DNA from: Escherichia coli
Lineage (GTDB): Bacteria > Pseudomonadota > Gammaproteobacteria > Enterobacterales > Enterobacteriaceae
Strand: one strand, 5' to 3'
Assembly: GCF_030013595.1 (NCBI RefSeq)
Contig: NZ_CP122768.1
Length of the DNA stretch: 64,000 nucleotides
In this document: positions 9,772 to 26,099 of the stretch, piece after piece
How the letters are laid out: the number at the start of each line of letters is the position of its first letter
Position numbering within the stretch: the stretch's first letter is position 1
The notes under the pieces: model-generated
What the model was told of the DNA's origin: nothing
Database searches by the model: none
The model's input: the letters and a program-made list of their open reading frames with translations, nothing else
Position numbers and translations under genes: made by a program

Positions 9772-11306
9772 GGGTGCGGCTCCGTTTTGCTGGTTACGTC
9801 GATGGCATCGATACGGCGGCTGTTGAACAGATTGAATTTGGTATCTGAACCGTGGCAGCCATCACCAAAGGTAAAGCCGCAGCCATTTTTCTCCGGGAAG
9901 GCTTCCCGCGCCAGTTCACGATGACTGCTCGGCACCACAAAGCGATCTTCGTAGTTAGCAATCGCCAGATAACGGTACATCTCCTGTGCCTGGGCTTCGG
10001 TCAGACCGACCTCTTCCAGCGCACGGGTATCGCCTTTACCGTCAACGGTTTCAGCACGTTTGTAATGACGCATCGCCAGCATACGTTTCAGCGCGCGCAG
10101 TACTGGTTTGGTATCACCGGCGGTCAGCAGATTCGCCAGATACTGTACCGGAATACGCAGACTTTCGACGTCTGGCAGAATGCCGTTGCTGCCCAGTTCA
10201 CCCGCATCTGCCGCAGACTGAATCGGCGACAGAGGCGGCACGTACCAGACCATCGGCAGTGTGCGATATTCCGGATGCAGCGGCAGCGCCAGTTTCCATT
10301 CCATCGCCATTTTATAAACCGGCGACTGCTGTGCGGCTTCAATAACGCTCAGCGGAATACCGTCTTTAATTGCCTGCTCGATGACTTTCGGATCGTTCGG
10401 ATCGAGGAACACCTCCAGCTGACGCTGGTAGAGATCTTTCTCGTTCTCGGTGCTGGCTGCACGTTCAATGGCGTCCGCATCGTACAGCAGCACGCCGAGA
10501 TAACGGATACGACCGACACAGGTTTCAGAGCACACCGTCGGCTGACCCGCTTCAATACGCGGATAGCAGAAGATGCACTTCTCAGACTTACCGCTCTTCC
10601 AGTTGAAGTAGATTTTTTTGTACGGGCATCCGGTGATGCACATACGCCAGCCACGGCATTTATCCTGGTCGATCAGGACGATGCCATCTTCTTCACGCTT
10701 GTAAATCGCACCGCTCGGGCAGGTCGCCACACATGCCGGGTTCAGGCAGTGTTCGCACAGGCGCGGCAAATACATCATGAAGGTGTTTTCGAACTGGCTA
10801 TACATCGCCTTCTGGATGTTGTCGAAGTTCTTGTCTTTCGCCAGCTTGTCAAACTCACCGCCCAGGTCATCTTCCCAGTTCGGCCCTTTTTCGATTTTCG
10901 CCATACGTTCGCCGGTAATCAGCGAACGCGGACGGGCAATCGGCTGCGATTTGCTGCCTTCCGGCGCGGTATGCAGGTTCTGATAATCAAAATCGAACGG
11001 CTCGTAATAATCGTCGATACCCGGCAGATGCGGGTTAGCAAAGATTTTACCCAGCAGCATGGCGCGGTTACCCATGCGCGGCTGCAGTTTGCCGTTGATT
11101 TTACGGATCCAGCCGCCTTTGTATTTTTCCTGGTTTTCCCAGTCAGTCGGGAAGCCCTGGCCCGGCTTGGTTTCCACGTTGTTGAACCACGCGTATTCCA
11201 CGCCTTCGCGGCTGGTCCAGACGTTTTTACAGGTAACTGAACAGGTGTGGCAGCCGATGCACTTATCGAGATTCAGCACCATGCCGACTTGTGAACGAAT
11301 TTTCAT
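9768..11306 (-). CDS. narH: Respiratory nitrate reductase beta subunit (Fe-S)
   Basis: 512 aa ORF with multiple ferredoxin-type Cys clusters (CIGCHTCSVTC, CEHCLNPACVATCP, CRGWRMCITGCPYKK). Confidence 0.97.
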   Translation of the reverse strand: MKIRSQVGMVLNLDKCIGCHTCSVTCKNVWTSREGVEYAWFNNVETKPGQGFPTDWENQEKYKGGWIRKINGKLQPRMGNRAMLLGKIFANPHLPGIDDYYEPFDFDYQNLHTAPEGSKSQPIARPRSLITGERMAKIEKGPNWEDDLGGEFDKLAKDKNFDNIQKAMYSQFENTFMMYLPRLCEHCLNPACVATCPSGAIYKREEDGIVLIDQDKCRGWRMCITGCPYKKIYFNWKSGKSEKCIFCYPRIEAGQPTVCSETCVGRIRYLGVLLYDADAIERAASTENEKDLYQRQLEVFLDPNDPKVIEQAIKDGIPLSVIEAAQQSPVYKMAMEWKLALPLHPEYRTLPMVWYVPPLSPIQSAADAGELGSNGILPDVESLRIPVQYLANLLTAGDTKPVLRALKRMLAMRHYKRAETVDGKGDTRALEEVGLTEAQAQEMYRYLAIANYEDRFVVPSSHRELAREAFPEKNGCGFTFGDGCHGSDTKFNLFNSRRIDAIDVTSKTEPHP

Positions 11307-22670: not shown

Positions 22671-22939
22671 CGTTGACTCCTTTTACAAAGTTGAACATTA
22701 AGTGTGGTCAACAATATCCACTCTTGCCAAAACATAAGAATTTTCATGTCAGACTCTTCTTAAGAAATGCTAAAACAAACATTGTCTAAACGCATTGCTT
22801 ATTTTTATGGCCCAATGAGTAAAAAATCGACAGCGGGGTAAAAATTCGTAAAATGTTACCGATATCCAGACACTTTCTGTTATTTTTCCTACCTATTTTT
22901 TACATTTTCGATAAATTCATCTGCAAAGGGATAACCATA

Positions 22940-24040
22940 ATGTCAAATGCTCAAGAGGCGGTAAAAACCCGCCACAAGGAGACTTCGCTTATTTTCCCGG
23001 TTCTGGCGCTGGTAGTGCTGTTCCTGTGGGGAAGCAGCCAGACACTACCAGTGGTCATTGGCATCAATCTTCTTGCTCTTATTGGTATTTTAAGTAGCGC
23101 CTTTAGTGTTGTCCGTCATGCGGACGTATTAGCCCATCGCCTGGGAGAACCTTACGGTTCGCTTATTCTTAGCCTTTCAGTGGTTATTCTTGAAGTCAGT
23201 TTGATTTCAGCTTTAATGGCAACCGGCGACGCCGCGCCAACGCTAATGCGTGATACGCTCTATTCAATCATTATGATTGTTACCGGTGCGCTGGTTGGCT
23301 TTTCATTATTGTTGGGCGGACGCAAGTTTGCCACCCAATATATGAATCTGTTTGGTATCAAGCAGTATTTAATTGCGCTGTTCCCCCTGGCGATAATCGT
23401 ACTGGTATTTCCAATGGCTCTGCCTGCGGCGAATTTTTCAACCGGTCAGGCGTTACTGGTAGCATTAATTTCTGCGGCAATGTATGGCGTATTTTTGCTG
23501 ATCCAGACCAAAACGCATCAAAGTTTATTTGTCTACGAGCACGAAGATGACAGTGATGATGACGACCCGCACCACGGTAAACCGTCTGCCCATAGCAGCC
23601 TTTGGCATGCTATCTGGTTGATTGTCCATCTGATTGCCGTTATTGCAGTCACCAAAATGAACGCCAGCCCGCTGGAGACATTGCTCGACAGCATGAATGC
23701 CCCTGTCGCCTTTACTGGCTTCCTGGTAGCTCTGTTGATTCTGTCGCCGGAAGGTTTAGGTGCGTTAAAAGCAGTGTTGAACAACCAGGTCCAGCGCGCG
23801 ATGAATCTGTTCTTTGGTTCAGTGTTAGCAACCATTTCGCTTACCGTACCTGTCGTCACGCTAATTGCCTTTATGACGGGTAACGAATTGCAGTTTGCAC
23901 TTGGTGCGCCAGAAATGGTGGTGATGGTGGCCTCTTTAGTGCTGTGCCATATCTCCTTCTCCACCGGACGTACTAACGTGCTCAATGGCGCAGCGCATCT
24001 CGCACTGTTTGCCGCCTATTTGATGACGATATTTGCCTGA
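22940..24040 (+). CDS. chaA: Ca2+/H+ (Na+/H+) antiporter
   Basis: ATG 22940 (MSNAQEAVKTRHKE) gives 366 aa polytopic CaCA-family protein; ORF-track start 22853 is an extension. Confidence 0.93.
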   Translation: MSNAQEAVKTRHKETSLIFPVLALVVLFLWGSSQTLPVVIGINLLALIGILSSAFSVVRHADVLAHRLGEPYGSLILSLSVVILEVSLISALMATGDAAPTLMRDTLYSIIMIVTGALVGFSLLLGGRKFATQYMNLFGIKQYLIALFPLAIIVLVFPMALPAANFSTGQALLVALISAAMYGVFLLIQTKTHQSLFVYEHEDDSDDDDPHHGKPSAHSSLWHAIWLIVHLIAVIAVTKMNASPLETLLDSMNAPVAFTGFLVALLILSPEGLGALKAVLNNQVQRAMNLFFGSVLATISLTVPVVTLIAFMTGNELQFALGAPEMVVMVASLVLCHISFSTGRTNVLNGAAHLALFAAYLMTIFA

Positions 24041-24445
24041 CAGATATATCTCCTCCGATGACAGAAATCGGGGGAGATAATATAAATTCCTGCTTATTGT
24101 ATTTCTTCATACTACCTGAACAGGTTGTTAATCAGAATTGCGAGCCTGTACCAGAACCTGCACGAAACCACTGCAACAGCTGTTGAAAAGCCGGAATGTA
24201 CTCTTTATTGCAAACATTTCAGGGATGAAGTGAAGATGAATTGAGACGTAGTATCCACACCAAGCCGGCGTTATCCGGTGAGGCGCAATGTTGCGGGGGC
24301 TTTATCCCTGGTGGCATTGGTTGCTGGAAAGAGAAAACCCCCGCACGTTGAGAGGTAAAACCTGACAACAGAACGGGGGCTAATCTTGAACCATCAACAA
24401 TTCAAGAATAGCCGCAAAATGTTGTCATTACAACAAGGCGGCTAT

Positions 24446-24553
24446 ATGACGCTCGCGCAGTTTGCCATGATTTTCTGGCACGACCTGGCAGCACCGATCC
24501 TGGCGGGAATTATTACCGCAGCGATTGTCAGCTGGTGGCGTAACCGGAAGTAA
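24446..24553 (+). CDS. ldrA: Ldr-family small toxic peptide (35 aa)
   Basis: ATG to TAA encodes MTLAQFAMIFWHDLAAPILAGIITAAIVSWWRNRK, single TM helix; matches Ldr toxin family. Confidence 0.8.
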   Translation: MTLAQFAMIFWHDLAAPILAGIITAAIVSWWRNRK

Positions 24554-24602
24554 GGTGAAAACGGGCGTCAGGCTGCCGTGATGGCAATATGCGCCCGAAA
24601 CC

Positions 24603-24635
24603 GGCCGCAGGGGTAACAGCCTGCGGCCTTTTTTG
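24603..24635 (+). terminator. Rho-independent terminator of ldr transcript (copy 1)
   Basis: ggccgcagg-ggtaacag-cctgcggcc followed by T6. Confidence 0.75.
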
Positions 24636-24980
24636 TCTTTATCTCTTCCACAAGTAAATATTGGCAACCCGAGCTGGAAGCATCATCCAGAGCACTCATG
24701 AAACGACTGTAACAGCTGTTGAAAAACCGGAATGCACTCTTCATTGCATACATTTCAGGGATGAAGTGAAGATGAATTGAGTCGTAGTATCCACACCAAG
24801 CCGGCGTTATCCGGTGAGGCGCAATGTTGCGGGGGCTCTATCCCTGGTGGCATTGGTTGCTGGAAAGAGAAAACCCCCGCACGTTGAGAGGTATAACCTG
24901 ACAACAGAACGGGGGCTAATCTTGAACCAGAACAATTCAAGAATAGCCGCAAAATGTTGTCATTACAACAAGGCGGCTAT

Positions 24981-25151
24981 ATGACGCTCACGCAGTTTGC
25001 CATGACTTTCTGGCACGACCTGGCAGCACCGATCCTGGCGGGAATTATTACCGCAGCGATTGTCAGCTGGTGGCGTAACCGGAAGCAAGGTGAAAACGGG
25101 CGTCAGGCTGCCGTGATGGCAATATGCGCCCGAAACCGGCCGCAGGAGTAA
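24981..25151 (+). CDS. Ldr-family toxin variant with stop codon replaced by CAA (56 aa read-through form)
   Basis: MTLTQFAMTFWHDLAAPILAGIITAAIVSWWRNRK followed by Q (CAA at 25086-25088 where copy 1 has TAA) and 20 further codons through the terminator hairpin. Confidence 0.6.
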   Translation: MTLTQFAMTFWHDLAAPILAGIITAAIVSWWRNRKQGENGRQAAVMAICARNRPQE

Positions 25152-25170
25152 CAGCCTGCGGCCTTTTTTG
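25138..25170 (+). terminator. Rho-independent terminator of ldr transcript (copy 2)
   Basis: ggccgcagg-agtaacag-cctgcggcc followed by T6. Confidence 0.75.
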
Positions 25171-25183
25171 TATCCGGCCCCAT

Positions 25184-25221
25184 GAAAAAAGCCTTAACGC
25201 AGAACGCTAAGGCTTTAGTTT
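25184..25221 (-). terminator. Probable terminator of kdsA
   Basis: Imperfect inverted repeat gccttaacgc...gctaaggc with flanking T/A runs just downstream of kdsA stop. Confidence 0.45.
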
Positions 25222-25235
25222 TCAAGCAAAAAAGA

Positions 25236-26099
<864 letters not shown>

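Follow-up and report, generated by a model that had tools for sequence, protein, structure and literature searches.

The second of two ldr toxin genes in the window (the whole stretch of Escherichia coli DNA analyzed, 64,000 nucleotides) lacks its normal stop codon, TAA having become CAA at 25086-25088 through one base change, and carries a 56-aa open reading frame. The frame opens with the ATG at 24981-24983, has CAA as codon 36, and closes at the next in-frame stop, a TAA at 25149-25151 (product MTLTQFAMTFWHDLAAPILAGIITAAIVSWWRNRKQGENGRQAAVMAICARNRPQE). The first-pass annotation had identified the stop loss and the 56-aa product correctly, but it counted 20 added codons where there are 21 sense codons (Q36-E56). 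It also had the frame reading through the terminator, whereas the new stop lies inside it, in the 8-nt loop of the hairpin at 25138-25163. On the evidence of genome comparisons, the C allele is genuine and inherited within one uncommon E. coli lineage.

On balance, the allele is probably a tolerated, nearly neutral variant in a redundant family, with toxicity likelier to be reduced than enhanced and with no designed coupling of translation to termination. It arose by one T-to-C transition in the kdsA-proximal unit of a two-unit LDR array. The rest of the copy 2 module is unchanged, including the Rdl gene, the SD, the start codon, core residues 1-35 and the terminator, and the module would stay silenced as usual by Rdl and by folding of the mRNA. 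Ribosomes that did translate it would run 21 further codons through the 3'UTR arm that pairs with the initiation region; their path over 25089-25151 would take in the whole closing arm and the 5' half of the terminator stem, where the normal allele stops 9 nt before the arm. They would stop at the TAA in the terminator loop, and the product would be the Ldr transmembrane core with a 21-residue tail on the cytoplasmic side. The family is redundant in the carriers, with an intact copy adjoining the variant and about four LDR units per genome (a 601-base query found four matching places in each). Since no phenotype has been reported for deletion of Fst/Ldr modules (PMC7472228), a change confined to a single copy would be expected to carry little cost.

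The allele alone is minor, as an infrequent point mutation that affects a single member of a redundant set of copies of a well-known toxin gene, and the 56-aa form is already in databases, labeled 'toxic polypeptide' or pseudogene. It is also a natural experiment on whether the strictly conserved 35-residue length of Ldr is needed for toxicity, and it bears on the ldr 3'UTR, whose conservation across five genera is at the RNA level and whose predicted partner, with compensatory changes, is the ribosome-binding site and start codon. The carrier strain and strain C4, which differs by one base, provide a direct comparison for the silencing of ldr mRNA. The most useful by-product of the analysis is comparative support for this predicted pairing.

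The two-unit LDR locus

The two LDR units are about 530 bp each and 95% identical to one another, and both have the same layout, in which an ldr ORF on the plus strand is followed by an intrinsic terminator and opposed, across its 5'UTR, by an Rdl gene on the minus strand (Table 1). Copy 2 belongs to the LDR elements by its place in a tandem array of such units between chaA and kdsA, in synteny with K-12, and by the intrinsic terminator at its end; it belongs to the type I modules by the Rdl gene encoded in cis and antisense to the ldr 5'UTR. The flanks assign copy 1 to K-12 ldrC and copy 2 to K-12 ldrA. Both Rdl genes score above the Rfam gathering score of 50 for RF01813. The antisense gene matching copy 2, whose integrity the first-pass annotation had proposed checking, is intact, and the promoter region flanking it is identical to that of copy 1. 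Copy 1 encodes a canonical peptide (MTLAQFAMIFWHDLAAPILAGIITAAIVSWWRNRK) followed by TAA (24551-24553).

Table 1. Features of the chaA-kdsA interval, in window coordinates
Feature	Position	Strand	Basis
chaA (+), two LDR units, kdsA (-)	22853-26090		sequence reading
rdl copy 1, antisense RNA antitoxin gene	24332..24397	-	RF01813, 83.6 bits, full length
ldr copy 1 (ldrC position, adjoins chaA), canonical 35-aa toxin ending RNRK-TAA	24446..24553	+	annotated WP_000170955.1
ldr copy 1 terminator	24603..24634 (hairpin 24603-24628)	+	terminator scan
rdl copy 2, antisense RNA antitoxin gene, full length and intact	24868..24933	-	RF01813 rdlD, 87 bits, model positions 1-66/66
copy 2 translation-initiation region (SD ~24972-24978, AUG 24981-24983)	24954..24989	+	predicted duplex 5' arm
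ldr copy 2 (ldrA position, adjoins kdsA), 56-codon ORF and TAA	24981..25151	+	sequence, translation
CAA codon in place of TAA stop (T to C at 25086)	25086..25088	+	sequence
copy 2 3'UTR arm, anti-SD/anti-AUG (untranslated in normal alleles, translated here)	25098..25125	+	predicted
copy 2 intrinsic terminator: 9-bp GC-rich stem, 8-nt loop, U tract	25138..25169 (hairpin 25138-25163)	+	terminator scan
predicted helix	24954-24966 with 25113-25125	+	minimum-free-energy fold
predicted helix, SD	24972-24978 with 25106-25112	+	minimum-free-energy fold
predicted helix, AUG and next codons	24982-24989 with 25098-25105	+	minimum-free-energy fold

Compared with strain C4, the LDR region (24100-25200) had 3 differences in about 1.1 kb, and the chaA, kdsA and sirB1 flanks had 34 differences in the remaining 2.5 kb or so. 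This low divergence of the LDR region relative to its flanks suggests strong constraint or repeat homogenization. In many complete genomes, for example NZ_CP159698.1, an IS200C insertion was found in the 601-base region from ldr copy 2 to the start of kdsA; the unit was 99.7-99.8% identical in these relatives, and the window is without the insertion.

Inspection of the sequence downstream of copy 2 revealed a second hairpin at about 25184-25214 (AGCCTTA...TAAGGCT), with a run of A flanking one side and T-rich sequence the other. It was absent from the terminator scan because its loop is longer than 8 nt. It resembles a terminator for kdsA on the minus strand and, on the plus strand, could back up termination of ldr read-through.

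The extended peptide and its parent allele

Residues 1-35 of the copy 2 product matched the Pfam Ldr_toxin model over its whole length (PF13940, model positions 1-35/35, E 3.8e-24, 84.9 bits), and the LdrD structure (PDB 5LBJ) aligned to these residues only. The signature of the toxins is a hydrophobic helix with PXXXG, a conserved Trp and a charged C-terminal segment (Weaver 2020, PMC7472228). On inspection the copy 2 peptide has P17-ILA-G21, W30-W31 and the charged segment R32-N-R-K35, and its hydropathy peak covers residues 13-28. It departs from the family in length, at 56 residues where Ldr peptides have 35 and end after RNRK or NKRK. The tail (residues 36-56, QGENGRQAAVMAICARNRPQE) is mostly polar, with a net charge of +1, a mean hydropathy of -0.96 and a hydrophobic patch of only 8 residues. 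It had no match in Pfam or NCBIfam, and in NCBIfam no Ldr model scored above its cut-off with the 56-aa protein. The C-terminus of LdrA has been modeled as cytosolic (PMC8309996, PMC7472228), and by analogy the tail of copy 2 would lie on that side. It would seem to be translated RNA-structure sequence rather than an evolved protein segment.

The parent of this allele can be recognized in strain C4 (NZ_CP010121.1), which equals the window at all but one of the 601 bases of 24640-25240, having T at 25086. The gene there encodes WP_000176713.1, a 35-aa protein found on at least 995 contigs. Relative to copy 1, copy 2 does carry the substitutions A4T and I9T, as first reported, at positions N-terminal to the hydrophobic helix, but they are not marks of decay, as both define this common normal allele. 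I9T by itself is present in K-12 LdrB. Because the C4 allele already carries both substitutions and is otherwise identical, they are ordinary polymorphism and the stop loss is the sole lesion. The first-pass suggestion of an inactivated or attenuated toxin allele thus loses the part of its argument that came from A4T and I9T, and stays viable through the pseudogene label, the near-invariant 35-aa length and the rarity of the extended form.

In its strongest version, that suggestion makes copy 2 a plain pseudogene, in which the tail abolishes membrane insertion or toxicity and the gene is dead and decaying in a redundant family. This is possible but somewhat doubtful. The PGAP pipeline labeled copy 2 a pseudogene in both complete carrier genomes, with the note 'missing C-terminus', but the label stems from an annotation rule. 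A pseudogene in the usual sense has a disrupted or incomplete frame, and the copy 2 ORF is uninterrupted from ATG to TAA, complete and merely longer, extended rather than truncated. Also in favor of the pseudogene is the length of the peptide across genera. A pattern scan of one genome per species yielded homologues in Citrobacter, Kluyvera, Pseudocitrobacter, Escherichia and Salmonella, and 46 of the 48 ldr units with readable full-length sequence encoded exactly 35 aa. The two exceptions were copy 2 itself and a copy with a premature stop. Together with the roughly 11,000 TAA copies against 5 stop-loss copies in E. coli, this near-invariance suggests that the C-terminus or the position of the stop matters, and that the change is maybe not neutral.

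Work on related peptides points the same way, in that Lpt requires a charged C-terminus and truncation of Fst appears to lower its toxicity (PMC7472228). LdrA itself is sensitive to appendages, as a His tag at the N-terminus abolishes its toxicity (PMC8309996). Against a dead gene, no second lesion was found in copy 2, whose promoter region, SD, core codons, rdl and terminator equal those of a functional allele; RNRK is kept, and a polar, positive tail is compatible with a cytosolic location. A nearly neutral variant, probably of reduced toxicity, remains the preferred reading.

The premature stop in the homologue set is a TAG at codon 31 (W31) in Pseudocitrobacter vendiensis (L042:1393-1632), the sole truncated copy among the 48 units.

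Predicted pairing of the ldr 3'UTR with the initiation region

In the minimum-free-energy fold of the full-length copy 2 mRNA, the initiation region pairs with the 3'UTR in three helices totaling about 28 bp (Table 1). The equivalent duplex of copy 1 joins 24419-24454 with 24563-24590. When the homologues were folded singly, the duplex was present in 44 of the 48 minimum-free-energy structures, with an ensemble median of 24.6 expected base pairs. Across an alignment of 47 sequences, standard pairs made up 90.1% of duplex cells, compared with 29-62% when the partners were slid by 1-3 columns; the sequences are mutually related, and one of them supplied the long-range structure. Six pairs changed on both sides, and the covariation score exceeded all 500 shuffles. 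The alignment pair 36-193, for example, was AU in 20 sequences, GU in 12, GC in 11 and UA in 3, and those with UA disrupt the rival local hairpin.

Alternative local hairpins were equally conserved (97.3% paired). One masks the SD with an upstream AGCCGC and the other lies within the 3'UTR; pair 31-36 of the local fold was CG in 24 sequences and UA in 18. The terminator helix (helix 5) was paired in 99.3% of cells across the homologues. The region looks like a switch between two mutually exclusive folds that would both hide the ribosome-binding site, and the SD is predicted to be masked in the local hairpin on nascent RNA as well as in the full-length fold. Refolding of the RNA was considered as the main consequence of the SNP and rejected, as the T-to-C change altered the mRNA fold by about 1 kcal/mol and left 412 of 416 positions unchanged. 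Folds run from three assumed mRNA 5' ends (24755, 24790 and 24800) gave the same result.

In reviews, the mechanism of ldr/rdl is either called unknown or likened to that of hok, with a leader ORF (ldrX) proposed (PMC8309996, PMC4147584, PMC8167048). Full-text literature searches, whose scope did not extend to the primary ldr papers (Kawano 2002, 2012), returned no account of an initiation region paired with the 3'UTR, and the predicted pairing of the ldr 3'UTR with the ribosome-binding site and start codon is put forward here as new.

In all 48 units, the ldr ribosome-binding site is crossed by an upstream ORF whose start lies within the region complementary to Rdl. Relative to ldr this ORF is in frame in 32 cases, ends at an ATGA overlap in 9 and uses the third frame in 12. 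Copy 2 and K-12 ldrA share a 56-codon GTG ORF of this kind (24814-24984, plus strand), whose TGA overlaps the ldr ATG; a TTG start is also available at 24922-24924. The upstream ORF is consistent with the proposed ldrX leader acting to unwind the RNA whatever its frame. The ATGA overlap was considered as a general coupling device and rejected, since it is present in copy 2 and K-12 ldrA and is not conserved.

The predicted duplex raises a different possible consequence of the stop loss, a gain or change of expression, in which ribosomes open the closing arm and melt the terminator, with more initiations or an altered 3' end or stability as the outcome. If the duplex is real, translation of its 3' arm could raise toxin output, which is the counterpoint to near-neutrality. 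The case for it draws on the approximately 28 bp predicted between the initiation region and the 3'UTR, on the recurrence of the duplex in the individual folds, on pairing and compensatory changes above both the shuffles and the slid controls, and on the normal stop lying only 9 nt upstream of the arm. In addition, ribosomes that stop near a terminator can repress it under coupled translation (PMC4824070). This reading is nevertheless unlikely. Its support is entirely computational, the promoter scan found no sigma-70-like promoter for ldr and hence no match that fixes the mRNA 5' end, and the local hairpins are as well conserved as the duplex. Masking of the SD on nascent RNA argues against coupling at the terminator, and the putative kdsA terminator would probably catch any read-through. 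A hyperactive allele should moreover be counter-selected or suppressed, but the carriers show no compensating change in the 601 bases and their lineage has diversified. Ribosome-mediated anti-termination at copy 2 is unlikely for two of these reasons, the SD being predicted as masked on nascent RNA and a second hairpin lying just downstream.

A specific form of this idea treats the 3'UTR as an arm against the ribosome-binding site that locks the full-length mRNA, with the normal stop placed just ahead of it to keep ribosomes out. The stop loss would then be an 'arm-invading' mutant in which each translating ribosome would reopen the initiation region and melt the terminator, with burst-like, self-amplifying translation of a tail-bearing toxin or altered 3'-end processing. 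This form has only a slim chance of being right. If true, the allele would be a regulatory variant and a ready-made probe of ldr/rdl control, which reviews call unknown (PMC8309996).

Across the five genera, the 3'UTR was better conserved than the CDS. Its frame relative to ldr took three different values among the 48 homologues (K-12 ldrD, for example, has a 1-nt indel), and the spacer directly after the stop varied in length. Judged by these patterns, the 3'UTR is conserved as RNA and not as hidden coding sequence. The first-pass proposal that translation is functionally coupled to the terminator finds no footing here, given the varying frame among lineages and the predicted masking of the SD.

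The variable frame and spacer length also rule out a conserved long isoform or programmed read-through, of which the allele would make a low-level cryptic extension constitutive; this explanation is highly improbable. The 20 codons 3' of the stop in E. coli ldrA/B/C are without an in-frame stop, and several of the extended proteins in databases share 'GRQAAVMAICARNRPQG', but a run of 20 codons free of stops has a chance probability of about 38% ((61/64)^20). K-12 ldrD and most Citrobacter and Kluyvera units use other frames or reach early stops, and conservation tracks base-pairing, not codons. The preferred reading of copy 2 is still that of a tolerated variant, whose tail would be read from a conserved RNA arm.

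Distribution of the allele and comparison with known systems

The frequency of the allele was determined with 55-base megablast queries centered on the variable base, in which every 28-base seed must span that base. The extended form was rare, with the C allele in 2 of 5,426 complete E. coli genomes and the T allele (TAA) in 5,408 of them, at 11,002 places. Both carriers are isolates from pigs in a single UK study; they are near-identical, were assembled separately and represent one clone. They were the only complete genomes to match the surrounding 24 kb at approximately 100%, and both have C; the next-best match was 99.1%, and strain C4, one of the genomes at that level, has T.

The exact 56-aa protein was also found on 23 contigs in a large protein collection (SQM79654.1 and others; UniRef A0A2X6JKC0), which include at least three further NCBI assemblies (GCA_021646965.1, GCA_900479205.1 and GCA_001650605.1). 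Its context on the 23 contigs was always chaA-ldr-ldr-kdsA, with the extended gene between the intact ldr and kdsA, and over as much as 6 kb of flank the carrier contigs showed 0-3 SNPs relative to the window. The window sequence is identical to neither pig isolate. At 24337, on the edge of the 3' stem and U tract of rdl copy 1, it has A, against C in strain C4 and in both pig isolates, and this private base in the rdl copy 1 terminator sets the window apart as another member of that lineage.

A sequencing or assembly error at 25086 can practically be dismissed: although polishing errors can occur in a repetitive region of this kind (two units of about 530 bp, 95% identical), independent projects recovered the identical base, in two complete genomes and on 23 contigs, the site is outside Dam and Dcm motifs on inspection, and no paralogous ldr copy in the complete genomes searched has C at the codon-36 position, so mis-polishing or cross-mapping from a paralogue cannot have made it.

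Other stop-loss alleles were sought in the same 5,426 complete genomes with the six remaining one-change sense codons, concatenated with CC spacers between blocks. TTA (6EVA), GAA (BR1220) and TCA (23AR0998) were found in one genome each, and AAA, TAT and TAC at ldr codon 36 in none. In total there were four independent stop-loss events in five genomes, among about 11,000 copies. The protein collection contained Y, L, Q and E forms (P0001, P0130-P0133, P0005 and P0159) on ldrA/B/C-type and ldrD-type backgrounds. One other extended form was on 12 contigs, and the Q allele described here was the most widespread, with its 23. Most extended forms share the length of 56 aa, since translation past codon 36 next meets an in-frame stop at the terminator-loop TAA. 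From these counts, loss of the ldr stop is recurrent, rare and sometimes transmitted.

Neither TAG nor TGA occurred at ldr codon 36 in the 5,426 complete genomes, and rarity alone is therefore no measure of selection, as this neutral comparator is absent altogether. The invariance of TAA is an observation in its own right, since TAG or TGA would also stop translation; it may be due to generally very low LDR diversity or to constraint from the RNA fold.

The closest characterized relative of copy 2 is K-12 ldrA/rdlA (b4419/b4420), which shares its kdsA-adjoining position, flanks, 5'UTR, Rdl target, SD, 3'UTR and terminator, and belongs to the same families (Pfam PF13940, Rfam RF01813). The K-12 array has three tandem units (ldrC-ldrB-ldrA, LDR-A/B/C), whereas that of the window has two. 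K-12 LdrA is 35 aa and ends at TAA; copy 2 has CAA at codon 36, is 56 aa long, and differs further by A4T and I9T. The normal allele of strain C4 is nearer still, with A4T, I9T, rdl and terminator all within the 601 shared bases, and the T that ends its peptide at K35 as the sole difference. The other stop-loss alleles resemble copy 2 in kind, but they are independent mutations, with Y, L, E, S or Q at position 36, in other ldr paralogues and other strains, and all are rare.

Beyond the Ldr family, ldr/rdl is like hok/sok of plasmid R1 and aapA1/IsoA1 of Helicobacter pylori in pairing a stable toxin mRNA with an unstable antisense RNA. Sub-threshold matches to the sok family, RF01794, were found over both ldr 5'UTRs on the plus strand (24295-24448, 27 bits; 24831-24983, 30.1 bits); against a gathering score of 59 they were rejected as evidence of membership in the hok/sok RNA family, and they are probably chance or a faint echo of similar architecture. 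A leader ORF has been invoked in both hok and ldr, as mok and ldrX respectively, with ldrX only proposed (PMC4147584, PMC8167048). Masking of the ribosome-binding site by a distant 3' segment is experimentally established for hok and aapA1 (PMC4147584, PMC5416894), whereas the similar masking in ldr is predicted, with covariation as its support. The geometry would also differ, in that the SD and AUG themselves, not the 5' end, are the predicted partners of the ldr 3' arm.
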